Shown in pieces: positions 27,242 to 51,954 of a stretch of 64,000 bases of DNA (positions within the stretch are counted from its first letter, which is position 1; each line of letters starts with the position of its first letter). The position numbers and the translations under genes were made by a program. The notes under the pieces were generated by a model. It saw only the letters and a program-made list of their open reading frames with translations. It was not told the origin of the DNA and did no database searches. This stretch comes from Candidatus Omnitrophota bacterium (GTDB taxonomy: Bacteria > Omnitrophota > Gorgyraeia > Duberdicusellales > Duberdicusellaceae): the NCBI GenBank assembly GCA_016932855.1, contig JAFGCB010000024.1, positions 2,813-66,812 of the forward strand, written 5' to 3'.

Positions 27242-27256
27242 TACAGTTCGCTAAGT

Positions 27257-29732: not shown

Positions 29733-30078
29733 GAAATTCGTTTGTATCGAACGGTTTATGCAGGTAGCCGGCGACTTTTAAGTTGACTGCCGATTTGTAT
29801 TTATCTTCGTCCACAAAACCGGTAATGAAAACTTCGGGAATCGGTGCTTTTCCCTGTTTTTGGCGAAAGTCACGAATTGACTTTATGGTTTCTATGCCGT
29901 CCATCTCCGGCATTCGTATATCGCAGACTATCATATGGAAATCGTCATTTTGAATCTTCGTAAGAGCATCCGCTCCCCCGTAAGCAATCGTTACCTCATA
30001 GCCTTTCTCTTGGAGTAATTTTTGCAGACTTTTCGTTATAATTTTCTCATCCTCGATTATTAAGATTTTATTTTTCAT
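29701..30078 (-). CDS. single-domain response regulator (CheY-like receiver)
   Basis: 125 aa; acidic pocket IEDE and phospho-Asp in VCDIRMPEMDG; embedded in the lipid operon. Confidence 0.8.
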   Translation of the reverse strand: MKNKILIIEDEKIITKSLQKLLQEKGYEVTIAYGGADALTKIQNDDFHMIVCDIRMPEMDGIETIKSIRDFRQKQGKAPIPEVFITGFVDEDKYKSAVNLKVAGYLHKPFDTNEFLEIIERNLDT

Positions 30079-30548: not shown

Positions 30549-30797
30549 TCATTTGTTTAGTGACTTTAAGACAACTTCATATACATTCTCTAGAGACCGT
30601 ATATTCGGTATTTCTTCTTCAGGTATGGTTACTTTATATTTCTTTTCAATGCTGGCTACAATTTCTAATGCCATCATGCTGTCTACGCCCAGCTCGTCGG
30701 CAAAGCTGGCATCATCACGAAGCTCACTTTCGGGCATTTCCACGATCTCCGAGACAGCCTTTTTTATTTCTTTTTTGATTTGTTCAGGCTTGGCCAT
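30549..30797 (-). CDS. acyl carrier protein
   Basis: 82 aa; phosphopantetheine attachment site DLGVDSMMALE. Confidence 0.85.
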   Translation of the reverse strand: MAKPEQIKKEIKKAVSEIVEMPESELRDDASFADELGVDSMMALEIVASIEKKYKVTIPEEEIPNIRSLENVYEVVLKSLNK

Positions 30798-30815
30798 AGG
30801 CCTCCTTTCTTTAAA

Positions 30816-31565
30816 TTAAATTGCCAATCCTCCGTCGATCTTTATAACTTCACCTGTTATGTATTCAGATTCACCGGAAGCAAGAAACGCGCAGAGGTTT
30901 GCAACTTCGTTTGCGGTCCCCATCCTTTTTACTGGTATATTTTCGATTATCTTTTTTTTGACATCATCGCGTAAAGCGGTGACCATCTCCGTGGCGATAT
31001 ATCCGGGGCATATGGTATTGACTCGGATATTGTATGACGCAATTTCTTTTGCCAGGGCTTTCGAAAAGCCGATTATGCCGGCCTTTGAAGCGCAGTAATT
31101 AGTTTGCCTTGGCGTTCCTGTTAAACCGCTAACAGAGCTGATATTTAGGATACATCCGCTTTTTTGTTTAAGTAGAGTAGTAATGCAGGCTCTTGTCATA
31201 TTGAATGTGCCGTTTAGGTTTGTATCAATGACGTCTTTCCAGTCTTCCAGGGTCATCATCATTAAGGCTTTATCTTTTATTATGCCGGCATTATTTATTA
31301 AAATATCGATTTTCCTGAAATTATCAAGGGTTTTAGTGACTATTTCCCGGCATTGACCATAGTCGCGTACATCTGCCTGTAAGCTTAAATGCTTACATTG
31401 GCAAGTTTTTAGTTTTTTGGCTAATTCTTGGGCTTCGTCTTTACTTTTAGCGTAGGTAAAGACTACATTTGCACCTAGCTGTGCAAAGAGTTCGCAACAG
31501 GCCCGGCCTATTCCGCGAGAGCCACCGGTAATTATAGCAGTCTGATTTTTAAGCGTTTTTTCCAT
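30816..31565 (-). CDS. fabG: 3-oxoacyl-ACP reductase (SDR)
   Basis: TGGSRGIGRA cofactor motif; NAG, S..YxxxK catalytic residues. Confidence 0.85.
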   Translation of the reverse strand: MEKTLKNQTAIITGGSRGIGRACCELFAQLGANVVFTYAKSKDEAQELAKKLKTCQCKHLSLQADVRDYGQCREIVTKTLDNFRKIDILINNAGIIKDKALMMMTLEDWKDVIDTNLNGTFNMTRACITTLLKQKSGCILNISSVSGLTGTPRQTNYCASKAGIIGFSKALAKEIASYNIRVNTICPGYIATEMVTALRDDVKKKIIENIPVKRMGTANEVANLCAFLASGESEYITGEVIKIDGGLAI

Positions 31566-31664
31566 AAATTTCTTTAGGTCTTAATTATCTCACTGCAAAA
31601 AAGATATGTAAAGCTTATATTTTCATAGCGTTACGCAAAAAAATGTCTATTCGAATACCGCGTT

Positions 31665-33017
31665 TTATTCCTTCGTCACAATAAAAAAATAAATGTAGCC
31701 GAAGTTGTCAGATTCCAGTATAAGTGCTGAATTTGGAATTCCTGAATCAAGAAATAACTTTCTTACGTCATCCTTTGTTCGGGAGACAAATTTCCAGTCG
31801 CAAAACCAATCCGGGCAAATAGGCGGAATGGTCTTTTCACGATTTTTATGAGTCATTATTATTTTACCATTTTTTTCCAATACCTGAAACAAGGCAAAAA
31901 TGAGCTTTTTTAGGACTCTATCCGGCAAATAGTCAATGAGTCCTATGCTGTAGATTAAGTTTTGTTTTACGGGCAGGTGAGCGATCTGTTTATTTCTTTC
32001 AATATTAACCCCTTGTAGGTGCGAAAAGTGAAATTTAATATTCGGAAACTGCTGGTTAGCAAAAGCCTCGGCTGAGAATTTCAAGGCTTCGCCATCCCAA
32101 TCAAGGCATCTGAAAATCACTGTTTTTTCAGTTTTAAGGCTGAGTAAAAGTTCTCTTATTTCTCTGCAGCAGCTGCAGGCAATGCTTAGAATATGTACCG
32201 GTGAAGCTGGAGTTTCGTGAATAAACTCGGTAATAAGGTTTTTAAGGCGGTCTTTACGTGACCGGGCAGCTACCGCGTAAGGGCTTTTTAGAAAAATGTT
32301 ATCGAAATAAAGACCTATATTTTGGGAAACAGGTTTATTTGAATAAATAAATTCAAGAGCCCGGTGGTCTTCGGAATAGCCCCGGGGTTTGTCAAAGGCC
32401 TGTTTTACGATAATGCTTTTATATATCCAGGCGTCTACCAGGCGCCGGAAGTTGTCTTTAATCCGCTGGGTAGTCTTTTTATCGGCAAGAATAAGCTCCA
32501 GGCTGTAACCTTTTAAGAGGATTTTATTATTTAATTGTTCTATAATAGATTCTAATTCAGGTAGATAGGTTTTGTCGGTATAGGTGCCGGGAATAAGACG
32601 GGTTATTTCAGTTATATATTCAAACATATCTTTGGTAAAAAAATCCCGGACCAATAATCTAGCATCAGATTTCCTAATATCTCGAAGAAGTTGGCTTATT
32701 TGAGCTTTGATTAATTCCTTTCTTAAAGACGTTTTTTCATTTTCGTTAAGTCCGGTAAACTCGAGGCCATAGATGGTGTTGCCGTTATCGACAGTTTTTC
32801 GCCAGGCAAGTTTAGCGGTAGTTTTTATTTTAGAGGTTTTACCGGGGAAATTTATTTGTAAGGAGATTTCCGGACTCGATATCACTTGCGATGCGACAAA
32901 ACTTACCCCTCCTTCGCTTAGGTCAATCGAATCACCCGCGCTTTTAGGGGAAAATTTGAGTTTTAAGTTTGCCTTTATTCTGGGATAAGCCCGTTTTTCC
33001 TGGTAATTTTTATTCAT
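31665..33017 (-). CDS. PilZ domain - class I SAM-dependent methyltransferase-like fusion protein
   Basis: N-terminal RAYPR...DLSEGG PilZ motifs; C-terminal ILSIACSCCREI / LDWDGE / IYSIGLIDYL resemble MTase motifs I, post-I and II. Confidence 0.5.
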   Translation of the reverse strand: MNKNYQEKRAYPRIKANLKLKFSPKSAGDSIDLSEGGVSFVASQVISSPEISLQINFPGKTSKIKTTAKLAWRKTVDNGNTIYGLEFTGLNENEKTSLRKELIKAQISQLLRDIRKSDARLLVRDFFTKDMFEYITEITRLIPGTYTDKTYLPELESIIEQLNNKILLKGYSLELILADKKTTQRIKDNFRRLVDAWIYKSIIVKQAFDKPRGYSEDHRALEFIYSNKPVSQNIGLYFDNIFLKSPYAVAARSRKDRLKNLITEFIHETPASPVHILSIACSCCREIRELLLSLKTEKTVIFRCLDWDGEALKFSAEAFANQQFPNIKFHFSHLQGVNIERNKQIAHLPVKQNLIYSIGLIDYLPDRVLKKLIFALFQVLEKNGKIIMTHKNREKTIPPICPDWFCDWKFVSRTKDDVRKLFLDSGIPNSALILESDNFGYIYFFIVTKE

Positions 33018-33057
33018 ACGCTAATTTACGCTAATTATAAAGCTAATTTCCGCGAAT
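33018..33057. repeat. intergenic motif A copies (ACGCTAATTT, ACGCTAATTA, AAGCTAATTTCCGCGAAT) with ~10-bp phased GCGAAT/ACTAAT units
   Basis: Read directly; repeat-rich spacer 33018-33124 upstream of the PilZ-MTase gene. Confidence 0.6.
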
Positions 33058-33124
33058 CAAGATGCGAATTTAAAGCGAATTTACACTAATCTACGACGAA
33101 TTAAGACTAATAATACATATCACA

Positions 33125-33577
33125 TTAAACGCTTGAATAAGCATTTCGCGAAGAGGAGATAATTCTTTTTTTATCCAGAATTCTGCGCCTTATATCGATT
33201 TTTGTAGCGCCAAAGTTGATTATATATCCTAATTTATAATTCGTACCTTTTAAGTAATTGTATAGCTGAGTTTCATAGAATTTCGGCATAATTTCCACGG
33301 CTTTTATTTCTATGATAATTTTCTTATCAATAATGAAGTCCGGGGTATAATAACCCGCAGTTTTGTTTTTGTACTTTATCGGAATGCGCCTTTCTTCTTC
33401 GTGCGTAATATTTTTAAGCGCGAATTCGATTGTCAGCGCCTTACGGTAAACCGATTCCTTAAAGCCCGGTCCAAGTTCATTATAAACTTCAAAGAAACAG
33501 CCCACAATATCATAGGAAAGGTCCTTATATAATAGATTCTTGCAATTTTTACTCTTTATACGCATAGAATTTTTCAA
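33125..33577 (-). CDS. GxxExxY family protein (PD-(D/E)XK nuclease-like fold)
   Basis: IVGCFFEVYNELGPGFKESVYRKAL signature; 150 aa. Confidence 0.75.
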   Translation of the reverse strand: MKNSMRIKSKNCKNLLYKDLSYDIVGCFFEVYNELGPGFKESVYRKALTIEFALKNITHEEERRIPIKYKNKTAGYYTPDFIIDKKIIIEIKAVEIMPKFYETQLYNYLKGTNYKLGYIINFGATKIDIRRRILDKKRIISSSRNAYSSV

Positions 33578-33617
33578 TCCGCGAAAATTAGTTTAATCAA
33601 TTAGCGAGAATTAGCGT

Positions 33618-33998
33618 TTAAATAATAGTTTTTTTAATCGCCTCTAAAAGCACTGCGTTGTCAAAAGGTTTGTATAAATGCTCTGCTACTTTTAGTTTCA
33701 TCGCTTCCTGGTATTTCTCCATATCAGCATAACCTGTTATTAAAATCTCAGGGATTTGCTTCTTTTTTGCTTTATTTAAGTAGCTGCGGATTTGTTTAAT
33801 TATTTCAATGCCGTCCGCCTCGGGAATTCTGATATCGCAGATAATAAGATTAAAATCAGTTTCCTTTATTTTTTCTAAAGCTTCTTTCCCGCTTTGAGCA
33901 ATGCTTGTTTCATAGCCCGAGGTTTTTAAAAGCATGGATACGCTCTTTGTTACCAGCTCTTCGTCGTCAATCAATAGAATTCTTTTGCTCATAATCAA
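33618..33998 (-). CDS. single-domain response regulator (CheY-like receiver)
   Basis: 126 aa; clear paralog of the 29701 RR (ICDIRIPEADGIEIIKQIR...ILITGY). Confidence 0.8.
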   Translation of the reverse strand: MIMSKRILLIDDEELVTKSVSMLLKTSGYETSIAQSGKEALEKIKETDFNLIICDIRIPEADGIEIIKQIRSYLNKAKKKQIPEILITGYADMEKYQEAMKLKVAEHLYKPFDNAVLLEAIKKTII

Positions 33999-34076
33999 GC
34001 TCCTTTATAAGGGATTCCAGAGATTATTAAAATAGATTACAGAGATTAAATAAATATTACGTTGATTGCGCATTGA

Positions 34077-34487
34077 TTACGGTGATTTTAAATTCAGCCT
34101 TCGTATTTTGCAGCTTTTATTGCCAAAGTTTATCAATAAACCTACATTATAACCTGAGACTTTCATGTAAGACAAAAGCTGCGCTTCGAATAGCCTAGGC
34201 ATGATTCCGGTTACAGCCTTAACTTCGACTATTACCGAATTTTCAATAATTAGATCTATACGAAGAGTTCCGACTTTACGGCTGCGATAATCTACTTTAT
34301 ATTCGCTTTTCGTTGAGTACTTTAGGCCCGCGTCATTTAATGCCAGGTTTAAAGAATTATGATATATTTTTTCATTAAACCCCGGACCTAATTCGCTGTG
34401 AACTTTATACGCACAAGCGATGATTTTTTCCGTAAGCGGATCTCTTTCTTTAATCTTTGAAATCGGTTTCTTAATCTCTGTAATTAT
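34077..34487 (-). CDS. GxxExxY family protein, second paralog; no canonical start codon in frame
   Basis: My own minus-strand translation gives ...EIKKPISKIKERDPLTEKIIACAYKVHSELGPGFNEKIYHNSL...NFGNKSCKIRRLNLKSP*. The frame has no ATG/GTG/TTG near the expected N-terminus (only ATA/ATT) and runs on into the 3' end of the HK gene in another frame. It is absent from the ATG-based ORF track. Confidence 0.5.
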   Translation of the reverse strand: MITEIKKPISKIKERDPLTEKIIACAYKVHSELGPGFNEKIYHNSLNLALNDAGLKYSTKSEYKVDYRSRKVGTLRIDLIIENSVIVEVKAVTGIMPRLFEAQLLSYMKVSGYNVGLLINFGNKSCKIRRLNLKSP

Positions 34488-34501
34488 TGAAGAATATTTT
34501 G

Positions 34502-36697
34502 TTAACTTTTTACTTTGCTTTCTTCTTTCATTGCAGGGAGTTGCACGGTGAATACGGCGCCTTGGTTGGGTTCGGATTCTACTGAAATCGTGCCTTTATG
34601 CTTTGCGATAATTGAATGGCAGATAGAAAGCCCTAGACCAAGTCCTTTGCCTACGTCTTTCGTAGTAAAAAACGGGTCGAATATTTTGGAAAGAATACCT
34701 TGTGGTATGCCCGGACCTTCATCTTGGACTTCAATCATTATCGTTTCATCTTTTTTTGAGATAGCTACATGTATTATACCACTTTTCTTTAAGCGTTTAA
34801 TCGCGTCTTTTGCGTTGAGGATTAGATTGGTTACGACTTGTTCAAGCTCATTGTGATTACCGGAAACAAAATATCCGCCTTCGTCTATTTGAGTGTTTAT
34901 TTTGATATTTTCCTGCTCTAACTGGTAGCTGATAAAAGCAATGGTTATATCTAATACTTTTCTTAAATCGACTTTATCAAGTCGTGCGGATTCAAGAGGC
35001 TTCTTGGCGTAAGTCATAAGTTTCTGGACAATTGTCCGGCATCGTTTCGTCGCCTCCTCTATCAGTTCCAGTGATTCTCTGTCTAATTCCGAATCAATCG
35101 GTTTAGCGGCTAAAAGCATTTGAACATTAGTAAGGATTGCGGTTAAGGGGTTATTTATTTCATGGGCCACTCCTCCGGCCAGGGTGCCTACTGTTGCTAA
35201 CTTTTCTGCCTGAACGAGTTGGTTCTGGACTTCCATTAGTTCTTTGGTCCGCTGGCGCACCTGTTCTTCAATATTTTCATAGCGCAAGGCATTATCAATA
35301 GCCAAAGCAGCTTCGGTTACAAAAACAGAAAAGTTATGTAAATCTTCCGAGGTGTAAGGCCTTTTGGAGAGTTTGTCTCCCAAAATAAGGATGTTTAGCA
35401 ATTTTTCTTCCAGGAAACTAGCCACGACTACCTTGGCGTTTAAAAGGGCCATTTCGCTTTCTAGCTGCGTAAAGACAGAGTCAGGATTGTCTTCGGATTT
35501 TCGTTTTACTTCTTCGTATACAAGGGGTTCGTTTTGCTTTTCAAGGTAGTGAATTAAAGGATTTTTTTTGTCGATGGAAATCGGCTGTTTTTCGTTTAGA
35601 TTGCGGCCGGCTTTAAGGATAAATTGGTTAAATTCCGGATCAAAAAGATAAATTGCGGAATGAGAAATACGGACGGTCTTAGTAATCGTATAAGCAATAA
35701 AATCCAGAAGCTTCTTTGAATTACGGATACGGGCTATTCCGATTGCGGCCTGCTTTAGCGTTTCCTGATAGCTGCGCTGTTCCCGCAAAAGTATTGCTTC
35801 AGCGTTTCGCAGTAAATATATATACGCAAAAGGGCCAGTGGTTGCCAAGATTGCCATAAGAATGAGAGGTCCCAGCCACCAGTTTGTCCCCAAAAAAATA
35901 ATTAACCAATCTTTGCCAGCATTGATTAAAAGAAAAGGCAAGCCAAGTACGATAGTGTAAACTGCAACGAATATAGCAGTGCGAGTTACGACTACGCGGA
36001 TATCCATTAGGCGGTATTTGACGATAGCGTAAGCCATCAGGAGTAAATAAATTATAGTCAAAACATCATGCGGAAAAGAAATCTTGATCCCGAAGACTGA
36101 GAGAAAATAAATAGCTGAACCTAGAAAGCCGATAAATGTAGCTAATAGAAAATATTTAAGTTGATCATTCTTATGGGCTATTGATTTTTTATAAAAGGAA
36201 TATGCTTTACAGAAACCGTATGTCGCATATGAGTACCAATAAAAAAGAAAAAAGTAATAACTCACCCCTGGAACGAGATGCGTTTTAATAAAAGGCAAGT
36301 TGCTAGGAGTAATTTCTCTAAAGAAAAAAGGACTAAGCGTTAATAGAAAGCATAATGGAGAAAGAATGAACGAAGACCGGGCCAGATAAAGACCGATTCG
36401 ATCATTTTCTATCTTTTTGCCAGCTATATTATATACAACTAATAGCCAAAACGCAGGCATAAAGGAAACCGGTGCAAAAAAAAGTTTCTCGTAGAATATT
36501 GATGTCGCTACATTTTGTTTCGTCATTGTTATAAAGTGACTAAAACACCAGCTGCTAATGCAAAGACTAAAAACAAAAAAAACAAAGTTTAGGCTGTTTT
36601 TAATGTTTTTGAGTAATACAAAAACACCAATCCCGAAACTAATTAATACAGCGCTTAGGGTAACGGCCTGGTATACGTTCATACTTATATCCGGCAT
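34502..36697 (-). CDS. sensor histidine kinase, HisKA_7TM-like membrane domain + GAF-like + HisKA + HATPase_c
   Basis: 731 aa; third paralog; H-box GVAHEINNPLTAI; KYRLMDIRVV motif in the membrane domain. Confidence 0.8.
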   Translation of the reverse strand: MPDISMNVYQAVTLSAVLISFGIGVFVLLKNIKNSLNFVFFVFSLCISSWCFSHFITMTKQNVATSIFYEKLFFAPVSFMPAFWLLVVYNIAGKKIENDRIGLYLARSSFILSPLCFLLTLSPFFFREITPSNLPFIKTHLVPGVSYYFFLFYWYSYATYGFCKAYSFYKKSIAHKNDQLKYFLLATFIGFLGSAIYFLSVFGIKISFPHDVLTIIYLLLMAYAIVKYRLMDIRVVVTRTAIFVAVYTIVLGLPFLLINAGKDWLIIFLGTNWWLGPLILMAILATTGPFAYIYLLRNAEAILLREQRSYQETLKQAAIGIARIRNSKKLLDFIAYTITKTVRISHSAIYLFDPEFNQFILKAGRNLNEKQPISIDKKNPLIHYLEKQNEPLVYEEVKRKSEDNPDSVFTQLESEMALLNAKVVVASFLEEKLLNILILGDKLSKRPYTSEDLHNFSVFVTEAALAIDNALRYENIEEQVRQRTKELMEVQNQLVQAEKLATVGTLAGGVAHEINNPLTAILTNVQMLLAAKPIDSELDRESLELIEEATKRCRTIVQKLMTYAKKPLESARLDKVDLRKVLDITIAFISYQLEQENIKINTQIDEGGYFVSGNHNELEQVVTNLILNAKDAIKRLKKSGIIHVAISKKDETIMIEVQDEGPGIPQGILSKIFDPFFTTKDVGKGLGLGLSICHSIIAKHKGTISVESEPNQGAVFTVQLPAMKEESKVKS

Positions 36698-36709
36698 AAT
36701 TAGTTTAGG

Positions 36710-38179
36710 TTATTGTTTTCCATTCTTGAATTTATAGGCAAAATCATGCAAATTTAGCCCAAATAGGACAGCCACCAAAGATGCATTTCTTATTTTCCAT
36801 AAGCTTCGGATTACAAAATTAAATCGTTGTTTGTCGAACGAAAGAAAAGCTTTTAACGTAAGCATTAATCTTGTTCGTGAAAATAGAGCGGAAATACTAT
36901 AATTACGTTTTATTAAAACACCGCTTTTCCAGAGATTGACTAGGCGACTATACAGTTGCGGGTAGGAGTATATTTCTTTTAGAACTCGAATGTAGCCTTC
37001 TTCCAGTATTTTTTCGGACATAAATTTTGGTCTAAAACAAACATTGCTAAAAGTATATTTTTCCCAGCTTTCATGCAATAATCTTTGGTCTTTTTTTAAT
37101 CTTTTGTATAAACTTGTACCTACTAAAGGCGTCAGAATAGAAATTTGAGGAAACGCTATGTTAGATTCTTGCACAAAATTGATAATTTCATCAAATGTTT
37201 TTTCATCATCATAATCTTCGCCCAAAACAAAAGCACCCACTATCGAAATTCCAGAATGATGAATCCTATTAATTAATTCAATATATTCATGTCGTTTATT
37301 GACAGTGTTTTTTTTAATTAAATCCAAATTTTCTTGTCGCAAAGATTCGAAGCCGATCAATAATTGTCGACAACCACTCTTGTACATTAACTTCAATAAC
37401 TTATCATCTTTTGCAACATTCAATGAAACTTGTCCCCACCAATATTTAATTTTAAAAGGGGTAATAGCAGTAAAAAGTTCTTTGGCTCGTTCCGTATCAA
37501 AAACTATATTGTCATCGGCGAAAAAAATTCCTTTTCTTTTATCAATTCTTAATAAAGTTTCAATCTCGTGGATAACATTCTGGATTGGCTTTGGCCGGTA
37601 AGTATTACCTAAAAATGAAGTCACAGAACAAAATTCACATTTAAACGGGCACCCCCTAGCGGTTTGCATAATGTGAATATTATAAAGCTTATTTTTTAGC
37701 AAATCCCATCGCGGTACAGGAGAATGTGCTAAATCCGGAAATTTAGGTGCGTAATATATACTTTTAAGCTTTCTCTGACGAAAATCCTTTATTATGTCGG
37801 ACCATATCAGTTCTGCTTCTCCGACAACTACAGAATTTGCAAATTTAGAAGCTTCTTCAGGTAACATAGATGCATGAATTCCTCCTAGAATTACCGGTAT
37901 ATTTCGTTTTCGAAAATTATTTGCTATTTCATAGGCGCGCGGAGCTAGCGACGTATTAAACGTAATTCCTATTAAATCAACATCCTGTTGATAATTAATT
38001 GATTCGATGTTTTCGTCGATAAGTGTTATTTTGACATCTTTTGGAGTCAAGGCGGCTATGGTTGGTAATGCTAAAGGGGCACCCCCGCCGTATTTTCTAC
38101 CCAAAAGCTGAGCGGCAAATTTAAAATCCCAAAAATCGTAATCATCTTTTCTTGCAGGAGATATTAAAGCAAGTTTCAT
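36710..38179 (-). CDS. B12-binding domain radical SAM protein
   Basis: N-terminal cobalamin-binding-like Rossmann region; CPFKCEFCSV CxxxCxxC radical SAM cluster motif; 489 aa. Confidence 0.8.
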   Translation of the reverse strand: MKLALISPARKDDYDFWDFKFAAQLLGRKYGGGAPLALPTIAALTPKDVKITLIDENIESINYQQDVDLIGITFNTSLAPRAYEIANNFRKRNIPVILGGIHASMLPEEASKFANSVVVGEAELIWSDIIKDFRQRKLKSIYYAPKFPDLAHSPVPRWDLLKNKLYNIHIMQTARGCPFKCEFCSVTSFLGNTYRPKPIQNVIHEIETLLRIDKRKGIFFADDNIVFDTERAKELFTAITPFKIKYWWGQVSLNVAKDDKLLKLMYKSGCRQLLIGFESLRQENLDLIKKNTVNKRHEYIELINRIHHSGISIVGAFVLGEDYDDEKTFDEIINFVQESNIAFPQISILTPLVGTSLYKRLKKDQRLLHESWEKYTFSNVCFRPKFMSEKILEEGYIRVLKEIYSYPQLYSRLVNLWKSGVLIKRNYSISALFSRTRLMLTLKAFLSFDKQRFNFVIRSLWKIRNASLVAVLFGLNLHDFAYKFKNGKQ

Positions 38180-38243
38180 TGTGCAAATATGTTTAATCTA
38201 GTATTTATGATTTTTAGCAAATAGATAGCAAATAAAAAGCTCA

Positions 38244-39812
38244 TTAAACCTTAGCAGTTTCTTTTATTTTTTCAATAAGTGGCTTATCGACTAATCGGTT
38301 TCCCCAGTGGAAATCAGAGACTTCAAAGCCGTGTTTTTTGCCGAGGTTTCTTATTTCATCAATCTTTTCTATGGTTATGTTTCCGCGTCCGAAACTAAAG
38401 TTTTCAAAGCGTTTTTCTAGCGCAAGAATAATTGCTTCAGCAAAGCACCCGTACAGAGTCTCAGTTGTGGGCAGGCCGGTGTCGAAAGGAAATGTAATCG
38501 GCGTGGGAGTTTTGGTTAAGCCTCCGGAGAAAATAAGAATATCTTCCCGGGCGGTGGGCATATAGGAAACATTCTTTGGATATCCGACGTCACAGATTAT
38601 TGCGCCGGGCTTAAACCAACTGACATTAAGAATTGAAGCGCTTACGCTTGCGGCAGCAATAATAATATCAGCATCTCTTACGGCCTTTTCGTTGTCTGTG
38701 GAAGCGACAATTTCAGCTTTGTGTTTTTTTGCTAATTCGTGGCGTAAAGCCCGGAGGTTTGTCTTTGTCCGGCCGGTGATAGTTAATGTTTTTACTTTAT
38801 CGGACAATACTCTTGAGCAAGCGCTTCCGATATCGCCGGTACCACCGATTATAGCGACTTTCACTTGACTTACATCGAGATTTAAAAGTTGCGCGCCTTT
38901 TAGGACTCCATCAATAGCCATGGCTGCGGTAAAGGTATTTCCGGAGGTAAGAGGTACGTCAACTTCATGGGCAGCTTGGTGGCCTATTCTTTCTGCGACG
39001 ATAGAAGTAAAGCCACCCAGGGTTACGATTCCCACTCCTTGTTTTTCAGCGATTTTACAGGCTTTAACAACTTTGGAGAATATTGCCCATTTATCCTTCT
39101 CCATCATATCCGGGATAAAAGTGGCTACAATAAAGCATCCATCTACTGTTTGCCCGGTTTTGGAGCGAAAATCTTTAATGTCTGATAATTTGAACGACGG
39201 TGTTATCTGGAAAAGCTGGCCGAGAAATTCCTGCGACGGTATTTTAAAATCCGGGTTTAACATTTGAAGGCATCTGGCCAGATGATTAAAATTATAGAGA
39301 TGTCCGATAATGCCGAAGCCGGCTAATTTTTCGGTGTCGCCGTTTTTATAGCTGGTATACCTTGTGGATACCAGCCTTTTTTCCAGGGCCATTAATATTG
39401 CGGTAAAGTTGCTAGTAACTATTTGTTTCATAAAAGGTTCGGCAAAATCGCTTATTGCCGGGACACCTGCCCTCAGGTAAACTTTTAGGGAAACTAAAGT
39501 CCCTTCGGGGCGGTCTTCGAATTTCCACTCACCATGAAACTCTTCCAGGTCCCCTTCGATTGTCGTGAAACAGATGGTATTATTTTTTAAATCAAGAGTA
39601 TCTTCCTCTATCCAGCGTATAGGTACCTTGCTTACTTCTATTCGCCAATTTGTTTTCATTTTATTGTGAGTTTTCTCAATTACAGTAGCTTCCTTAACAC
39701 AAGGTACATATGACGGGAATTCCCACACTTTGGTTAAAAGTCGAACTACTCTCCATTTTTGGGCAGGGATTATTCTTGAAACGTTTACTTCGATTAGGTT
39801 TTTATCCGGCAT
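38244..39812 (-). CDS. SRPBCC (polyketide cyclase/START-like) domain fused to acyl-ACP reductase (cyanobacterial AAR-like)
   Basis: C-terminal ~340 aa aligns block by block with Synechococcus acyl-ACP reductase as I recall it: FGIIGHL, LGGFTSIV, TSGNTFTA, VAIIGGTGDIGSACSRVL, DVGYPKN, YGCFAEAIILALE, NFSFGRGNITIEKIDEI, KHGFE. N-terminal ~150 aa is an SRPBCC-type lipid-binding fold. Confidence 0.7.
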   Translation of the reverse strand: MPDKNLIEVNVSRIIPAQKWRVVRLLTKVWEFPSYVPCVKEATVIEKTHNKMKTNWRIEVSKVPIRWIEEDTLDLKNNTICFTTIEGDLEEFHGEWKFEDRPEGTLVSLKVYLRAGVPAISDFAEPFMKQIVTSNFTAILMALEKRLVSTRYTSYKNGDTEKLAGFGIIGHLYNFNHLARCLQMLNPDFKIPSQEFLGQLFQITPSFKLSDIKDFRSKTGQTVDGCFIVATFIPDMMEKDKWAIFSKVVKACKIAEKQGVGIVTLGGFTSIVAERIGHQAAHEVDVPLTSGNTFTAAMAIDGVLKGAQLLNLDVSQVKVAIIGGTGDIGSACSRVLSDKVKTLTITGRTKTNLRALRHELAKKHKAEIVASTDNEKAVRDADIIIAAASVSASILNVSWFKPGAIICDVGYPKNVSYMPTAREDILIFSGGLTKTPTPITFPFDTGLPTTETLYGCFAEAIILALEKRFENFSFGRGNITIEKIDEIRNLGKKHGFEVSDFHWGNRLVDKPLIEKIKETAKV

Positions 39813-40398
39813 TGATTAACTCCTTGATTGTGTTTTTGGTTTTAAGAGTACCTTCCTGTAAGTAAATATCATTAATTACTTCCCCGAATTCTTTCAAAAT
39901 GAATACCGGTTTACCGATTTTTACTTTAATAGGAAGAAAGAATTTTGCGAATCGCGCTCCAAAAGGAAGGGCTTTGTAAGCGCCCAGGATTGCGCAGGGA
40001 AGAATAGGCCTGCCGGTTTTAGCGGCTAAAAGCGCTGCGCCTCTGCGAAATTCACCGAGACTTCCGTCAGTGCTAAGTTTTCCTTCCGGATACAGGCCCA
40101 CGTTTTTATTCTTTAATAATAATCGTACAGCCTTATCTGAGGCATTTCCAGTAGGCAAAGCTTCCACTTTTAAGAGAAACCATTTTATGAAGGCAATTCC
40201 GTAAAGATAACGGGCCACCAGGCAGTAGATTTTTTTGGGAACAGCAGCCATGATGATTAAAGGATCAAGAAAGCTGGCATGGTTGGCAACGATAATGAAA
40301 TTTGTTTTCTGGGGGATGTTTTCTAATCCCTCCACTTCAAATTTGTAAAATGTTTTGAAAAACACGCGAAATATAGCGCAAAATATATAGTACCACAT
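39802..40398 (-). CDS. lysophospholipid (1-acyl-glycerol-3-phosphate-type) acyltransferase, PlsC family
   Basis: HxxxxD motif VANHASFLD; FPEG motif YPEGKLS; 198 aa. Confidence 0.75.
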   Translation of the reverse strand: MWYYIFCAIFRVFFKTFYKFEVEGLENIPQKTNFIIVANHASFLDPLIIMAAVPKKIYCLVARYLYGIAFIKWFLLKVEALPTGNASDKAVRLLLKNKNVGLYPEGKLSTDGSLGEFRRGAALLAAKTGRPILPCAILGAYKALPFGARFAKFFLPIKVKIGKPVFILKEFGEVINDIYLQEGTLKTKNTIKELINAG

Positions 40399-40584
40399 CT
40401 ACTTATTATTGTTATTTTCCTGGTTTTCGACCCATTCCTCTATTTTAGCTTTTTTAAAGCGCCAGTGTTTACCGACCCTAAAGGCCGGGATTTTCCCGGT
40501 CCTTGCCAGTTGATAAAGACTCGAGCGAGGTATTTTTAAATATTTACAGACTTCTTCTGCGGTTAAGATTACTTCTTGTACCAT
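40399..40584 (-). CDS. excisionase/AlpA-family helix-turn-helix DNA-binding protein
   Basis: 61 aa; LTAEEVCKYLKIPRSSLYQLARTGKIPAFRVGKHWRF is typical of the MerR-like excisionase HTH; abuts the plsC-like gene. Confidence 0.6.
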   Translation of the reverse strand: MVQEVILTAEEVCKYLKIPRSSLYQLARTGKIPAFRVGKHWRFKKAKIEEWVENQENNNNK

Positions 40585-40600
40585 CTTAATTCACGGTTCT

Positions 40601-40628
40601 AGCAGTTATAGCGGTTATAGCAGTTATG
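40601..40628. repeat. iteron-like direct repeats AGCAGTTAT-AGCGGTTAT-AGCAGTTAT
   Basis: Three contiguous 9-mers read directly, about 20 bp upstream of the HTH gene start. Confidence 0.7.
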
Positions 40629-40715
40629 TTACAGGATAGCTAAAAGTTTGTCAAGCATTTCTTGGGAGATTTGCAACAGGTCATCGAATTATTATTCACG
40701 CAATAAAACCACGGT

Positions 40716-41405
40716 TTATGGGCTTTGAGGGGCTAGTTTAAAGGGTTTATCCCGGCAGGTATCAAAAAGTTCCTTTAAGTCTTCTAGGTTAGACAAAATC
40801 AGGAGTAAATCTTTCTTTTTATCCTTATCACAATTATCTAAAGCGACGGCGACTTCGGCAATCATTGCTTTTAGTGCTGTTTCATAATCTTCCTTATTGT
40901 CCGGCCCGACAAGGGGCAGGTTGATTGCCGCAGGGTCCATGAAGGAGACGACTATTGCTCCGTCGATTTCTTTGGTCGACAGATTAAGGCGGTAAACTAC
41001 GTGCAAGACCATGGGTTTTTCGCCGATAGAGGCATTTCCATCTTTTGCAACGGAATCGCCATTAATGCCGGGGAAGAAATTTTGGTCGCGAAGCCGAAAG
41101 ATGATTGAATGTTCAGTTAGCAACTCGTCATCATCTGCGGTTATCCCAACCATATTTTTGGTGATTTCAATTTCGGGTATTGTAAAATCTTGCCCATAAA
41201 GAGTCAGATTGCTGTTTATAGGTAAATCAACAGTCATTTCCATCTCTTTAAATTTCAACTTGTAGAGCTGCATGGGCGTAAACAGCGAATCAAGGGATAA
41301 CGCCGGCATTTGCGTATTGAAATCAGGTTTTACTTTTTCTCGGTCAGGGTATGTGCTATGCAGGCAAAAAAGAAACCCTATTACAAAAATCAATGTTTTT
41401 TTCAA
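40716..41405 (-). CDS. hypothetical secreted protein
   Basis: 229 aa with N-terminal signal peptide; no recognisable motifs. Confidence 0.4.
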   Translation of the reverse strand: MKKTLIFVIGFLFCLHSTYPDREKVKPDFNTQMPALSLDSLFTPMQLYKLKFKEMEMTVDLPINSNLTLYGQDFTIPEIEITKNMVGITADDDELLTEHSIIFRLRDQNFFPGINGDSVAKDGNASIGEKPMVLHVVYRLNLSTKEIDGAIVVSFMDPAAINLPLVGPDNKEDYETALKAMIAEVAVALDNCDKDKKKDLLLILSNLEDLKELFDTCRDKPFKLAPQSP

Positions 41406-41965: not shown

Positions 41966-42652
41966 TTATTGGGAATCCCGTAGTTTTGACAAGTAAAATC
42001 TCGCAAGGGAAAGGTCGTGGGGAGTTGTTATTTTGAAATTCGAAGGAGAGGACGGAATAATCTTAACTTCTTTGTGTTTTTCGATTAAGATCACATCATC
42101 ATAGACATTTTTCGCCTTTTTACTTTTTGCCAAGAGATTTTTAATAAGTTTTACCCGGAGTCCCTGGGGAGTTTGAATCTGATAAATATTTCTTCTATCC
42201 AGGGTGCTTTTAACAATTTTTTGGCTATTCACAGACTTCAAGGTATCCTTGGCCGGTATTCCCGGAACCGCAGCCTCATATTTTTCTAAGGCAGAAATAA
42301 TCCTGGTAATCAGCTCTTTTTTTACGAATGGCCTGGCGGCATCGTGAATAAGGACATATTTAGCCTTAGGGCTAATACTTTCTAAGCCGTTAACAACAGA
42401 GTCTTTGCGCTGTCTTCCTCCGGCTATAACCTTTCCTGTCTTGTTAAATCCATAACGCCTGACTAAATCTTCAGCTTTTTTAATCTGATTTTTCCGGACA
42501 ACCAGTATGATTTCGCTGATTTTGGGGTGTTTCTGGAAGGTCTTCAGGCTGTAAAACAAGATAGGTTTGCTGCCCAGGGCAAGGAAAGCCTTAGGCTTTG
42601 CGCCCATGCGCTTGCCTTTGCCGGCGGCAACGATTATTGCATCAGTTTTCAT
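41966..42652 (-). CDS. ispD: 2-C-methyl-D-erythritol 4-phosphate cytidylyltransferase
   Basis: AIIVAAGKGKRMG N-terminal motif; 228 aa. Confidence 0.9.
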   Translation of the reverse strand: MKTDAIIVAAGKGKRMGAKPKAFLALGSKPILFYSLKTFQKHPKISEIILVVRKNQIKKAEDLVRRYGFNKTGKVIAGGRQRKDSVVNGLESISPKAKYVLIHDAARPFVKKELITRIISALEKYEAAVPGIPAKDTLKSVNSQKIVKSTLDRRNIYQIQTPQGLRVKLIKNLLAKSKKAKNVYDDVILIEKHKEVKIIPSSPSNFKITTPHDLSLARFYLSKLRDSQ

Positions 42653-43818: not shown

Positions 43819-45156
43819 TTACGTTTTCATTTTTATTTTTTCAATCACCTCCTTTGCATTGTTAAATCCCAGGATATTAAGGCCGAAGAAATCCTTAGGA
43901 TTAAGCTTTTTGTGGTTTATTTCCGGGATAAAGGCCTGTTTAAAGCCTAAACGCTTTGCTTCCATGAGGCGCTGGGTAATATTATACGCTATTCTTAGCT
44001 CTCCGGAAAGCCCTACTTCACCGATAAAAATAGAGTCAGCCGGGACGACAAAATCCTGAGCGCTGGAGGCGACTGCCGCTACCAGGGCAAGGTCAGCAGT
44101 AGGGTCATCTATTCGTATGCCTCCGGTAATATTAACAAATACGTCCTGGGTAGCCAGATGAAGCCCCAGCCGCTTCTCAAGCATGGCTACAAGCAGGCTA
44201 AAGCGGTTAAAATCAAACCCTGAGGTTTTTCTGCGGATCATTCCGAAATTCCCCTTAGTTACCAGGGCCTGTATTTCTACAAGCATGGGGCGCATTCCTT
44301 CTAAGATGCAGGCGGTGCTTCTTCCGGGCATAATCTGGTTGTCCTGGGAGATAAAAATTGATGAGGGGTTTTCGACTTGCTCGAGGCCTTTTTGGGTCAT
44401 TTCAAAAACACCGATTTCACCTACTGAGCCGAACCTGTTCTTCATTGCCCGCAGGATTCTGAAATTTGAGTTTTTTTCACCTTCAAAGTATACCACGCAA
44501 TCAACAATATGCTCCATGACCTTAGGTCCGGAAATAACCCCTTCCTTGGTAACGTGGCCCACAATAATCAGGCATACGCCTGTTTTTTTGGCTTTTTCAG
44601 TCAGAACACCGGTGGTTTCCCTTACCTGGACCAGACTTCCGGCGGAGCCGCTTAGATAATTCAAACGCACGACCTGAATGGAATCGATTATTACGACTGA
44701 GAAGTCTTTGTCAAACAGCGGCAAAATATCTTCGATATTGTCTTCAGTGACTATAAAGAGGTTGTCAGGGCAAATACCTAAGCGTTTTGCTCTTAAGTTA
44801 ATTTGGTTTATTGATTCTTCGGCGCTTACATATAAAACTTTATTTTCCTGAGCAAGCTTGGCCGCGGTTTCAAGCAACAGGGTTGATTTGCCTACTCCCG
44901 GCTCACCGCCGATTAAGACTACTTCTCCTTTGACCAATCCTCCGCCAAGAACCCTGTCAAATTCGTTTATCCCGGTAGGCAATCTTTTTTCGGTGGTTTG
45001 CGCGAGTTCTTTTATGTTCACAAGGGTTACATCTTTAGTTTTTGCCGCCTTCCGGGGTTTTGCGTCTTCCTCTATAAAACTTTCCCAAAAGCCGCATTGA
45101 GGGCATTTGCCCAGCCATTTTAGAGTCTTATATCCGCAATTCGTACAGGCAAACAT
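43819..45156 (-). CDS. radA: DNA repair protein RadA/Sms
   Basis: C4 zinc finger CTNCGYK...CPQCGFW, Walker A GEPGVGKST, KNRFG motif, Lon-like C-terminus. Confidence 0.9.
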   Translation of the reverse strand: MFACTNCGYKTLKWLGKCPQCGFWESFIEEDAKPRKAAKTKDVTLVNIKELAQTTEKRLPTGINEFDRVLGGGLVKGEVVLIGGEPGVGKSTLLLETAAKLAQENKVLYVSAEESINQINLRAKRLGICPDNLFIVTEDNIEDILPLFDKDFSVVIIDSIQVVRLNYLSGSAGSLVQVRETTGVLTEKAKKTGVCLIIVGHVTKEGVISGPKVMEHIVDCVVYFEGEKNSNFRILRAMKNRFGSVGEIGVFEMTQKGLEQVENPSSIFISQDNQIMPGRSTACILEGMRPMLVEIQALVTKGNFGMIRRKTSGFDFNRFSLLVAMLEKRLGLHLATQDVFVNITGGIRIDDPTADLALVAAVASSAQDFVVPADSIFIGEVGLSGELRIAYNITQRLMEAKRLGFKQAFIPEINHKKLNPKDFFGLNILGFNNAKEVIEKIKMKT

Positions 45157-45195
45157 ATTTCTTCAGTTTAGGCTTGGCTAGTCACTCTACACTAG

Positions 45196-45214
45196 ACGCT
45201 AACCGCTATACGCT
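45196..45214. repeat. intergenic motif B copy (ACGCTAACCGCTATACGCT)
   Basis: Read directly upstream of radA. Confidence 0.55.
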
Positions 45215-45215
45215 T

Positions 45216-45908
45216 TTATTTACGGGGTTTGTGGAGTAGTTTCCAGGGATGCGTTTTCAAATCAGTAACAAATTCTTCGAGCTCAGTGTATAAAGCGTCT
45301 TCATAAAAAAGTTTACCTATTGTTCCCTTGCCTGATTTTAAGTCATTTAGAAGAGTTTCCAGATTTGTGGAGGCACCCTGGAGGCTTCCCACGAATTTTT
45401 TAAAGGTTTCGGTTATTTCCTGGTCTTCAACCAATTTGGCAAAGGAAGTTAATACTCTGTCAAAACGCACCAGAATATTACGGGCAAATTCCCCCATGCG
45501 ATATATAGGCACGGAATCCTGGCCGATAATCGAATCCCCGTCTTTAAGATAACCGGTGGGATCTTCCTTGGGTATAATTTCCAAATATTTTTGACCAAGG
45601 ATACTTAAGTTGTTTACAAAAGCTTCGGAACCCTGGGGTATCTTTACTGTCCGGCGTATCCAGGCATATACACATACTTTTGTTTTACCGCCTACGTTTA
45701 CCAGGGCGATATTTTTAACTTCGCCCACGTCGACTCCCGAAACCCTTACCGGCGAAGCAGGCTTCATCCCGTCGCCGAAATTAAAAAATACTTTGATAGT
45801 GTATCCGGGATTAAAAATTCTGAAATCATTGATGGAAAAAATCGCAATAATGAATATTACCAGAGCGCCTACTATAAATGCACCTAAGGCGATTTCTTTT
45901 GTTTTCAT
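45216..45908 (-). CDS. mlaD: MCE-domain protein MlaD-like
   Basis: N-terminal TM + MCE domain; operon with mlaE and mlaF. Confidence 0.7.
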   Translation of the reverse strand: MKTKEIALGAFIVGALVIFIIAIFSINDFRIFNPGYTIKVFFNFGDGMKPASPVRVSGVDVGEVKNIALVNVGGKTKVCVYAWIRRTVKIPQGSEAFVNNLSILGQKYLEIIPKEDPTGYLKDGDSIIGQDSVPIYRMGEFARNILVRFDRVLTSFAKLVEDQEITETFKKFVGSLQGASTNLETLLNDLKSGKGTIGKLFYEDALYTELEEFVTDLKTHPWKLLHKPRK

Positions 45909-45924
45909 CAGCTAAATCCCCCCT

Positions 45925-46677
45925 TTAAATATCAACTTCTTTAATCGGACCGGACATATTCCCGTCAATAAACTGCCGCAATTTCGAATCGTCAGTTTTT
46001 TTAAGATCTTCGGGTGTCCCGGTAAAGATTATCTTTCCTCCAAAAAGCATGGAGATAGAGTGCGCAATCTTAAAAGCGCTGTTTAAATCATGAGTAACTA
46101 CCACCGAGGTTGTACCCAGTTTATTCTGCAAGTTTTTTATAAGAGAATTAATCATATCCGCGCCGATAGGGTCGACTCCAGTAGTCGGTTCGTCATAGAG
46201 AAGAACCGAAGGATTAAAACAAAGAGCCCTGGCAATAGCTACTCTCTTTTTCATCCCGCCGCTTAATTCTTGAGGATATTTAGTTTCGATATCTTTAAGC
46301 CCTACCAGGCTTAAGGAATTTGTCACTTTTTCTTTTATTTCGGATTTAGAAAAGCGGGAGTTTTCATATAAAAGAAAACCCACGTTTTCCCGTATGTTTA
46401 AGGAATCAAAAAGAGCCGCGCCCTGGAAGACCATTCCGAATTTAATTCGTATTTTATCCAGCTCTTTTTCGCTTAAGGCGGTTATTTCCAGATCATCGAT
46501 AAATATCTTTCCGGCATCAGGCTTGATAATGCCGAGTATATGCTTAAGGAGCACGCTTTTGCCGCTTCCCGAACGGCCGATTATTACATGGGTTTTGGCG
46601 GCCTCTATAGACAGATTTACTCCCCGCAAAACCCGAAGGCCGTTAAAATTCTTTTGAAGCTCTTGTATTCTTATCAT
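45925..46677 (-). CDS. mlaF: ABC transporter ATP-binding protein MlaF-like
   Basis: Walker A GRSGSGKS, signature LSGGMKKRVAIARA, Walker B LLYDEP. Confidence 0.8.
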   Translation of the reverse strand: MIRIQELQKNFNGLRVLRGVNLSIEAAKTHVIIGRSGSGKSVLLKHILGIIKPDAGKIFIDDLEITALSEKELDKIRIKFGMVFQGAALFDSLNIRENVGFLLYENSRFSKSEIKEKVTNSLSLVGLKDIETKYPQELSGGMKKRVAIARALCFNPSVLLYDEPTTGVDPIGADMINSLIKNLQNKLGTTSVVVTHDLNSAFKIAHSISMLFGGKIIFTGTPEDLKKTDDSKLRQFIDGNMSGPIKEVDI

Positions 46678-46680
46678 TTC

Positions 46681-47442: not shown

Positions 47443-47443
47443 T

Positions 47444-51930: not shown

Positions 51931-51954
51931 AATAATAGCTTTTTCTTTTATTTC

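Follow-up and report, generated by a model that had tools for sequence, protein, structure and literature searches.

Several described bacterial systems come close to the locus reported here, which lies on the minus strand of a 64,000-nt stretch of Candidatus Omnitrophota contig JAFGCB010000024.1 (assembly GCA_016932855.1; hereafter the window, to which all positions refer) and starts with genes for a small helix-turn-helix (HTH) protein, a PlsC-type acyltransferase, a fusion of a START/SRPBCC domain to a domain like acyl-ACP reductase (AAR), and a radical SAM enzyme (rSAM). The first is the cyanobacterial AAR (TIGR04058; PDB 6JZQ/6JZU). The second is PigE of prodigiosin biosynthesis (NF053554; PDB 4PPM), which reduces a thioester to an aldehyde and then transaminates it (PMC8341465). 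The elb ether-lipid operon of Myxococcus xanthus combines a FAR-like reductase, ACS, acyl carrier protein (ACP), an AGPAT-like acyltransferase and NAD-epimerase-type short-chain dehydrogenases/reductases (SDRs), and the chemistry of ElbD itself is unsolved (PMC9131029). A fourth comparison is offered by the ladderane-type, or anaerobic 'PUFA', fatty-acid synthase (FAS) clusters of Kuenenia stuttgartiensis and Desulfotalea psychrophila. The Omnitrophota are widespread in anoxic waters, sediments and aquifers and are essentially uncultivated. ElbD homologues have been reported in 93 of 267 of their metagenome-assembled genomes (MAGs) (PMC11868695), and earlier surveys flagged ElbD-, Mss- and 'ladderane'-like hits in the phylum, with no coherent picture (PMC11868695; bioRxiv 10.1101/2023.10.20.563219; PMC9902471).

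A scan of one genome per GTDB species recovered 84 relatives of the fusion protein, and the 80 loci kept, virtually all from Omnitrophota MAGs or single-amplified genomes, were annotated with blastp and with hidden Markov models (HMMs) built from the window proteins. We observe a conserved unit in the order HTH gene, (stand-alone AAR paralogue), plsC, fusion, a variable slot, seven-transmembrane (7TM) histidine kinase and response regulator. The kinase is the most conserved neighbour of the fusion, as it lies at most 4.2 kb downstream in 44 of 45 species loci and directly abuts the fusion, leaving the slot empty, in 25 of them; the response regulator follows it in nearly all loci. In this phylum-wide operon, a START-fused reductase, predicted to form aldehydes, is coupled to an acyltransferase and a membrane sensor kinase, with a hot-swappable slot in between. 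Relatives of the fusion form more than 120 clusters at 65-73% identity, all of about 520 aa and, where named, from Omnitrophota. The START-AAR fusion, its phylum-wide coupling to PlsC, the near-obligate kinase linkage, the swappable slot and an orphan rSAM as one of its occupants appear to be undescribed, and our literature search found no paper pairing 'SRPBCC' with 'acyl-ACP reductase'; every component belongs to a known superfamily. We favour, with somewhat better than even confidence, the reading that a single long lipid locus on the minus strand has the four genes at its 5' end and encodes a pathway, under the control of a sensor, to lipids derived from fatty aldehydes and possibly of ether type; the rSAM would be an anaerobic tailoring add-on to it.

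An original prediction, made from the window alone, had described the four genes as one contiguous, co-directional module. Its coordinates and spacing (a gap of 64 bp, an overlap of 11 bp and 0 bp) are reproduced exactly by the list of open reading frames (ORFs), and its four domain calls, B12-radical SAM, AAR fusion, PlsC and excisionase-like HTH, are upheld by the Pfam and NCBIfam HMMs with which the window ORFs were assigned. The second fatty-acyl reductase it placed about 10 kb away is an NAD_binding_4/thioester-reductase ORF. The module itself does not hold in that form, as the conserved unit is a different one: the prediction left out the 7TM kinase, the truly conserved partner of the fusion, and included the rSAM, whose slot is empty in more than half of the species loci. 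Of the membrane-lipid tailoring it proposed, the lipid-type pathway stands, supported by the AAR cysteine, the NADPH motif, the PlsC motifs and the downstream FAS set, and the rSAM as a fixed part of it does not.

The reductase domain of the fusion aligns end to end with residues 2-335 of the S. elongatus AAR 6JZQ (E 9e-38), with C456 at the position of the catalytic Cys294 and the NADPH motif GGTGDIGSA retained; both C456 and G323-S330 are invariant across 24 fusion homologues. Among curated families the domain matches PigE best, over the reductase half of that protein (aa 2-353, 187.7 bits); against the AAR equivalog TIGR04058 it scores below the cut-off of 449.7. Given the conserved cysteine and NADPH motif, and the similarity to the half of PigE that reduces a thioester to an aldehyde, the prediction that the domain is an aldehyde-forming thioester reductase is well supported. 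The N-terminal domain matches the START protein TTHA0849 (2D4R, E 1.3e-12). Compared with the cyanobacterial AAR, which it resembles in full-length alignment, catalytic Cys and NADPH motif, so that aldehyde-forming chemistry is expected, the fusion scores 184 bits against a family cut-off of 450, carries the extra START/SRPBCC domain, is coupled to PlsC and a 7TM kinase, and belongs to a host phylum sampled mainly from anoxic habitats. No ferritin-like domain of the partner aldehyde-deformylating oxygenase was found among the scanned window ORFs (those in 1-11 kb and a few others, such as 60163-60474 and 63382-63855, lying outside the scan). In a divergent hydrothermal-vent contig (L174, ERZ940666; L numbers designate individual loci), the SRPBCC and AAR-like parts are encoded by separate genes, 32% and 38% identical to the fusion, which we take as Rosetta-stone confirmation of the fusion.

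The acyltransferase is closest to the Aas acyltransferase region (PRK08633, 98.7 bits) and retains the HX4D (NHASFLD, aa 39-45) and YPEG (aa 103-106) motifs; against the canonical 1-acyl-G3P acyltransferase subfamily TIGR00530 it scores 65.6 bits, below the cut-off of 102.95. Its stop overlaps the fusion start by 11 nt in the window. Of 77 species-level loci, 54 have PlsC as the gene directly before the fusion, and the overlap is exactly 11 nt in 35 of these 54 and 8-14 nt in 46 of them. The recurrence of the pair with its usual overlap shows that the arrangement is beyond chance.

The slot between fusion and kinase is occupied, depending on the lineage, by a GMC oxidoreductase (~430 aa), an HpnA/SdmB/OleD-like SDR with an unknown 511-aa or a formyltransferase-like protein, an 891-aa ACS-ACP-acyltransferase with the FAR-less ElbD architecture, a BioF/SPT-like oxoamine synthase, a second AAR paralogue, a class-III transaminase, or a radical-SAM gene. 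The rSAM is therefore an optional add-on in a variable slot and not a fixed part of the operon, and one core paired with six different finishing enzymes constitutes a natural experiment for enzyme discovery. The transaminase, whose best curated match is PigE aa 377-727 (467 bits), follows the fusion in basal lineages as the other half of PigE and also accompanies the reductase in L174, so that reductase and neighbour amount to a split PigE; this is an independent indication that the fusion product is an aldehyde.

The same likeness raises the question whether the locus follows PigE-like logic altogether and its product lies outside the membrane, for instance as a fatty amine, amino-lipid or signalling/secondary metabolite, with PlsC as an N-/O-acyltransferase and the rSAM as a tailoring enzyme. 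We regard this as unlikely. The best curated match of the fusion and the adjoining transaminase half in basal loci would fit such a pathway, as would the class-III transaminase that also accompanies the closest rSAM relative, the BioF/SPT-like and formyltransferase-like genes in the slot, and the plasmid searches with the fusion, which matched PigE-like fusions only. However, neither the window nor most crown-group loci have a transaminase, PlsC is Aas/LPLAT-like with its glycerolipid-type motif set intact, and the close linkage with FAS II-type genes and a 7TM membrane sensor points to a bulk component of the membrane. Unlike PigE, the reductase of the window is fused to an SRPBCC domain, and its substrates are presumably long-chain acyl-ACPs and not a 3-acetyloctanoyl thioester.

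The favoured reading, a pathway for aldehyde-derived membrane lipids, finds a parallel in the M. xanthus elb operon and in ElbD with MXAN_1675, the likeness being one of parts lists. Both include a reductase and an AGPAT/GNPAT-like acyltransferase. L004 and L037 have an elb-like ACS-ACP module, and L001, L003 and other loci an SDR of the NAD-dependent epimerase type; the window has neither. The 891-aa slot protein matches the ElbD-like proteins without a FAR domain reported in other phyla. In contrast to elb, the reductase here belongs to the AAR superfamily and not to FAR/NAD_binding_4, the functions are on separate polypeptides, and an SRPBCC domain and a sensor kinase are added. On the strength of this parallel, an alkyl-ether or related aldehyde-derived membrane lipid would be the most likely product and is the one we prefer, as a tentative choice held at well below even confidence. 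The locus, which can be cloned, offers a concrete candidate for another bacterial way of making ether-type or other aldehyde-derived lipids; if the products are indeed ether or branched alkyl lipids, it would bear on the biological sources of sedimentary lipid biomarkers.

The rSAM in the slot has a CX3CX2C motif (C177-x3-C181-x2-C184) that is invariant or nearly so in 40 homologues; only C270 and C381 are conserved besides, and no auxiliary-cluster motif is evident. Its AlphaFold2 model (pLDDT 93.1) shows a Rossmann-like N-domain modelled with high confidence, and the nearest solved folds found by Foldseek are AprD4 (TM 0.71/0.76), then MgmA, CysS, TsrM, OxsB and TokK. With these B12-domain enzymes (AprD4 6FD2, MgmA 9CCB) it shares the Rossmann-like N-domain, the partial TIM barrel bearing CX3CX2C and the helical C-domain, with TM values of 0.57-0.66 to the methylases, whereas it differs in its low identity (13-18%), a DUF4070 tail and a cobalamin use that is putative. 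Family placement covered 24 NCBIfam matches, a comparison outside which Mss, GrsA/B, Gmm and Gms/Hbs lie, and all 24 are far below their cut-offs. The scores in bits, each with its cut-off, are 101.8/577.6 for HpnJ, 58.7/650 for HpnR, 80.1/360 for the ladderane-cluster family TIGR04072 and 15.2/450 for Tes among the lipid families, and 94.8/481 for BchE, 85.4/600 for PhpK, 55.4/500 for AprD4, 51.4/360 for MJ_0865 (MgmA) and 19.6/500 for the Trp methylase among the non-lipid ones. Membership in a curated family was rejected on this basis. Sequence and fold searches of the PDB gave distant class-B-type relatives only. By these comparisons the rSAM is an orphan clade with no curated NCBIfam family, lipid or non-lipid.

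The original prediction had looked for this enzyme among the lipid-modifying B12-rSAMs. The HMMs assign it to no characterised non-lipid clade, which agrees with that proposal, and they show no tie to the hopanoid, ladderane or tetraether synthases, which does not. In particular, a C-C coupling enzyme of the Mss/Tes/Gms kind, making membrane-spanning or tetraether-type lipids as had been suggested, appears highly improbable. Some Omnitrophota MAGs reportedly encode homologues of Mss and Hbs/Gms (PMC11868695; bioRxiv 10.1101/2023.10.20.563219), and the anaerobic setting with lipid genes alongside would suit such an enzyme. Against this, in a comparison that covered Tes among the three, the rSAM has a negligible Tes score, the Tes structure is missing among its sequence and fold matches, and it has only the two additional conserved cysteines mentioned above.

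The distribution of the rSAM gene is patchy. It occupies the slot in 3 of the 45 species loci with sufficient downstream sequence (L031, L032, L043) and also in L066, L007/L008 and the window; when the fusion protein is arranged in a neighbour-joining tree, the slot-rSAM loci are scattered over three positions, and L064 and L071, the closest relatives of the window on this tree, have an empty slot. The window copy has a GC content of 0.34 and a third-position GC content (GC3) of 0.265, compared to 0.41 and 0.42 +/- 0.04 for the window genes, whereas the copies of L031-L043 have native composition. The atypical GC3, together with the patchy position on the tree, indicates that the window rSAM was probably acquired recently by horizontal transfer. 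A stand-alone AAR paralogue is present in all slot-rSAM loci other than the window (Fisher p = 0.002, the three species loci being one clade).

Such an import might be a mere passenger, inserted into a permissive gap with no functional tie to its neighbours, as the strongly atypical GC3, the empty slot in the closest relatives and the selfish GxxExxY genes also inserted in the locus would allow. We consider this improbable, because the same family sits in the same slot in at least three other lineages and because L174, whose AAR is only 38% identical, once more has the rSAM flanked by AAR-type genes and a 7TM kinase. In the window, moreover, the gene is on the same strand as its neighbours, starts 64 nt after the fusion stop and ends 12 nt before the kinase start, with no terminator-like site in between. 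The recurrence of the rSAM neighbourhood in other lineages, on which the original prediction had hinged, is thus observed.

Evidence from context was taken from rSAM relatives of at least 45% identity. The closest homologue (54%) is that of L174, where positions 175-5594 encode, in order, a class-III transaminase, SRPBCC (168 aa) and AAR-like (344 aa) proteins, the rSAM and a 7TM kinase; that the rSAM occurs again between AAR-type genes and the kinase in so divergent a locus argues that the partnership is not accidental. Relatives of 45-49% identity are found beside AAR-like genes and kinases in L094 and L096, beside acyl-AMP ligases in L092, L095 and L096, and beside a squalene-hopene cyclase in L009. 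In L175 (GCA_028688215.1, an Omnitrophica MAG, 4655-17447), a relative of 49% identity has a LuxD-like fusion of acyltransferase and methyltransferase on one side and a 7TM-GAF kinase on the other; the genes that come after encode an HD-GYP protein, MGDG synthase, a lipid A-type acyltransferase, GT2, the cobalamin adenosyltransferase CobO and a binding protein like BtuF. L093 (GCA_011771205.1, 3085-12231), which lies outside the Omnitrophota loci, has a lipid-type cluster with several rSAMs: behind a ketosynthase come three rSAM genes with B12 domains, a membrane methyltransferase of ICMT/PEMT-like type, and then a split 7TM protein and a 7TM-GAF kinase. A 7TM kinase therefore follows rSAM relatives in L093, L174 and L175 as well. 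Through these associations, an orphan radical-SAM family gains a defined metabolic partner and becomes a candidate for new radical-SAM chemistry in anaerobes.

A more specific reading is that the rSAM is the dedicated O2-independent partner of AAR-type aldehyde generators in anaerobes and performs on the aldehyde or alkyl chain the kind of chemistry for which aerobes use oxygenases. Examples would be anaerobic deformylation to an alkane or radical formation of an alkyl-ether or branched chain. That SRPBCC, AAR and rSAM recur together beside a 7TM sensor, both in fused and in unfused form, would fit this reading, which we nonetheless hold to be improbable; if true, anoxic settings would have a new enzymatic source of hydrocarbon or ether-lipid biomarkers.

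The genes downstream of the kinase and regulator are of FAS type, and the stretch 21910-33017 is a probable continuation of the lipid locus. At least two FAS-type genes follow the kinase and regulator in 8 of the 30 species loci with at least 9 kb of downstream sequence, and such genes flank PlsC in L038, L057 and L068. Within 24112-38179 the window has the gene content of the ladderane-type clusters, namely ACP, FabZ, two divergent FabF, a phytoene-desaturase-like oxidase and a B12-domain rSAM, a likeness of gene content only. The rSAM might accordingly belong to this FAS-like set, as part of a ladderane-type or anaerobic polyunsaturated/modified fatty-acid cluster, and act on ACP-bound chains before PlsC and the reductase. 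The Kuenenia/Desulfotalea clusters have the same gene set (PMC2649909; PMC13459092), antiSMASH 'ladderane' clusters are reported in Omnitrophota MAGs (PMC9902471), the solved relatives CysS and TokK work on pantetheine-bound substrates, and rSAM relatives adjoin ketosynthases in L093 and L135. We nevertheless judge this assignment improbable, if slightly less so than the passenger explanation. The TIGR04072 score of the rSAM is far from its cut-off, and a kinase/regulator block separates the gene from the FAS genes, the closest of which is 5 kb away; the rSAM gene also has a different composition. FAS genes and rSAM do not co-vary across loci either: the rSAM-bearing L007, L031, L032 and L043 have no FAS genes within reach, and the FAS-bearing L003, L004, L047 and L089 have no rSAM.

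For the favoured lipid pathway, we propose the following mechanism. The fusion would take an acyl chain from acyl-ACP onto C456 and reduce it with NADPH to a fatty aldehyde, which the fused START domain may hold in its pocket. PlsC, produced in fixed stoichiometry through translational coupling, would acylate a glycerolipid acceptor from the same acyl-ACP pool, and the slot enzyme would finish the aldehyde or alkyl chain. Where this enzyme is the rSAM, it could carry out an O2-independent radical modification of a thioester-, aldehyde- or lipid-bound alkyl chain. Such alkyl-chain modification is the chemistry we favour for the rSAM, C-methylation being the commonest for its fold, although this call is a weak one because the closest solved fold, AprD4, is a dehydratase and cobalamin binding is putative. 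The 7TM-GAF kinase and its receiver-only regulator probably sense the membrane or lipid state and tune the pathway, and the HTH_17 protein would autoregulate the operon at a set of 9-nt repeats.

Several observations weigh against this picture. The pathway product is read from the parts list only, and AGPS, PlsA/Ger and all other enzymes known to form ether bonds are missing from the window. The PlsC link is not universal, since in basal lineages PlsC is absent beside the fusion and a FadL/TodX-type long-chain fatty-acid porin lies directly upstream instead (L055, L062, L072, L078, L079, L084, L085 and L086; PF03349, 190 bits in L055), which hints that exogenous fatty acids feed the reductase there. 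For the rSAM, the B12-binding domain PF02310 scores 31.6 bits, just below the cut-off of 32.1, and the nearest solved fold, AprD4, is a diol dehydratase that is not known to use cobalamin, which makes methylase chemistry a guess. The slot is empty in most species, so that the rSAM is dispensable for the core pathway. Finally, rSAM relatives of 38-44% identity have heterogeneous contexts, with a lipid-type neighbour in 18 of 64 loci and a near-versus-far enrichment of about 2-fold.

Generalizing from the metagenome-wide rSAM neighbourhoods at 38-44% identity was abandoned, as they are too mixed (226 clusters from 294 neighbours). L169 (10507-14664) encodes a 1385-aa PlsA/Ger-like protein with two BcrAD_BadFG domains and DUF2229, three genes from an rSAM relative (43%), and Ger-like fragments occur near rSAM relatives in the metagenome loci L122, L123, L127 and L129. 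Plasmid searches gave distant matches only. Among them, the Citrobacter portucalensis IncF plasmid NZ_CP134684.1 (L176, 52126-63512) has a block in which five rSAM paralogues, 38% identical to that of the window, are accompanied by a GH3-type adenylase, an N-acetyltransferase, a PAP2 phosphatase and a fatty-acid desaturase.

Upstream of the HTH gene, we observe a promoter and operator-like region in which four tandem 9-nt repeats overlap the -10 element and the likely transcription start. The repeat pattern occurs once in the window, where 0.01 matches are expected. Across loci, TTGACA(A) precedes the HTH gene as a -35 element in 29 of 46 cases, with a TAGTATAT-like -10. AAYYG repeats at 9-nt spacing are present upstream in 8 of the 46, against a background of 0.005 per 162 nt, and as triple repeats in 4, with zero in 1.57 Mb of background; the HTH-gene loci without AAYYG repeats share a different conserved leader. 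The promoter is credible because of this conservation across loci and not from the promoter/terminator scan of the window, which was at chance level (27 sites, 24.2 expected). Of 61 species loci, 34 have the HTH_17 gene upstream and co-oriented, and it stays ahead of PlsC, even if the genes upstream of it differ in every locus examined.

Xis-type winged-helix proteins bind tandem direct repeats head-to-tail, and BldC illustrates that small HTH_17-type proteins can act as transcription factors. As in Xis/AlpA/TorI and BldC, the protein consists of an HTH_17 domain only (61 aa) and has tandem direct repeats beside its own promoter. Its promoter-proximal place and the repeats, which are of the type bound by Xis, suggest that the HTH protein is probably an autoregulator of the operon binding the 9-nt repeats. 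Of the two roles first proposed for it, local plsC regulator or island-border relic, the promoter, the repeats and the recurrence across species loci support the regulator. A role as relic or excisionase was rejected, as there is no tRNA within 20 kb, no flanking direct or att-like repeat and no integrase among the scanned ORFs, and the flanks vary; in contrast to excisionases, the gene has no prophage context and is the first of a metabolic operon across the phylum. Assignment to the defence-system protein MADS1 was also discarded (61.8 bits, cut-off 80).

The entire stretch 21910-41405 is on the minus strand (Table 1). It reads, in order, an unknown 229-aa ORF, HTH, PlsC, fusion, rSAM, 7TM-GAF kinase, receiver and GxxExxY selfish gene; then PilZ-methyltransferase, FabG, ACP, FabZ, receiver and two FabF-type ketosynthases; and last thioester reductase, nitroreductase-family protein, CrtI-like oxidase and second 7TM-GAF kinase. 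A Logan contig carries the same gene order as the window locus, and the rSAM protein is identical to one from a "Candidatus Omnitrophica bacterium" MAG, whereas looking up the exact sequence of the fusion gave no match. This lipid/signalling block of about 20 kb splits ispD (41966-42652) from ispF (21366-21824), which lie side by side in most bacteria and are neighbours in L092; ispD is near the locus in none of the other Omnitrophota loci examined. The block is set within a Firmicutes-like mcsA-mcsB-clpC-radA-PIN/TRAM-ispD ... ispF-cysS run. No tRNA within 20 kb, integrase among the scanned ORFs or flanking repeat marks it as a classical island, and an Rfam search of the window returned two tRNAs only.

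Table 1. Features of the proposed lipid locus in the window, from upstream to downstream on the minus strand
Feature	Position	Strand	Length	Evidence
Promoter and operator-like region upstream of HTH gene	40592-40654	-		cross-locus conservation
-35 element TTGACA	40654-40649	-		
-10 element TAACAT	40631-40626	-		
Four tandem 9-nt repeats, ATAACTGCT / ATAACCGCT / ATAACTGCT / AGAACCGTG	40627-40592	-		
HTH_17/excisionase-family DNA-binding protein	40399-40584	-	61 aa	PF12728 69.5 bits; TIGR01764 61.9 bits
PlsC/LPLAT-family acyltransferase	39802-40398	-	198 aa	PF01553 81.4 bits (cut-off 23)
START/SRPBCC-AAR fusion gene	38244-39812	-	522 aa	
N-terminal START/SRPBCC (Polyketide_cyc) domain of fusion, aa 8-147	39372-39791	-		PF03364 52.4 bits; PF10604 33.3 bits
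Acyl-thioester reductase domain of fusion (AAR/PigE N-terminal family), aa 166-497	38322-39317	-		TIGR04058 183.9 bits; 6JZQ alignment
Radical SAM protein, B12-binding-like Rossmann N-domain, DUF4070 C-terminal	36710-38179	-	489 aa	Radical_SAM PF04055 52.3 bits; DUF4070 41.3 bits
7TM (HisKA_7TM)-GAF-HisKA-HATPase sensor histidine kinase	34502-36697	-	731 aa	Pfam
Receiver-only response regulator, paired with kinase	33618-33998	-	126 aa	Pfam
PilZ-methyltransferase	31665-33017	-		
FabG	30816-31565	-		
ACP	30549-30797	-		
FabZ	30078-30548	-		
Second receiver	29701-30078	-		
FabF-type ketosynthase	28461-29732	-		
FabF-type ketosynthase	27257-28480	-		
NAD_binding_4 thioester reductase	26135-27241	-		
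Nitroreductase-family protein	25563-26153	-		
CrtI/phytoene-desaturase-like oxidase	24112-25566	-		
Second 7TM-GAF kinase	21910-24111	-		

The Firmicutes-like mcsA-mcsB-clpC ... radA-PIN/TRAM-ispD part of this run, at 43819-53427, is itself interrupted by an MlaE/MlaF/MlaD lipid-transport operon (45216-47442) and by a 313-aa ORF with no Pfam match (47444-48385). A complete GxxExxY (PDDEXK_3) selfish gene (33125-33577) and a C-terminal GxxExxY fragment (34077-34202) flank the response-regulator gene. Beside the intact copy, a 41-nt sequence (33042-33082) recurs at 73% downstream of cysS (19527-19567). A similar insertion is seen in L003, where a 23S_rRNA_IVP gene lies among the FAS genes.

Three paralogous HisKA_7TM kinases, two of them with GAF, are encoded within 17 kb. 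The third (19750-21369) overlaps ispF by 4 nt, and just downstream of its gene a 47-nt imperfect inverted repeat or palindrome within 19647-19751 (77% complementary, 11-nt spacer) may be a terminator or a binding site. The two receiver-only regulators are interleaved with lipid genes, and no response regulator with a DNA-binding output domain was seen in the locus. The PilZ-methyltransferase joins PilZ, a receptor domain for c-di-GMP, to a methyltransferase of Methyltransf_20-like type and matches nothing in NCBIfam; its homologues recur behind the kinase/regulator pair in L042, L050, L051, L064, L068 and L081. In L092 and L175, the genes after the rSAM relatives encode HD-GYP or GAF-HD proteins. 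The PilZ and HD-GYP genes in the window and L175 suggest a c-di-GMP input to the pathway. A second radical SAM protein (314 aa), without a B12 domain, is encoded at 59161-60105 among housekeeping genes and is unrelated to the four genes described here.

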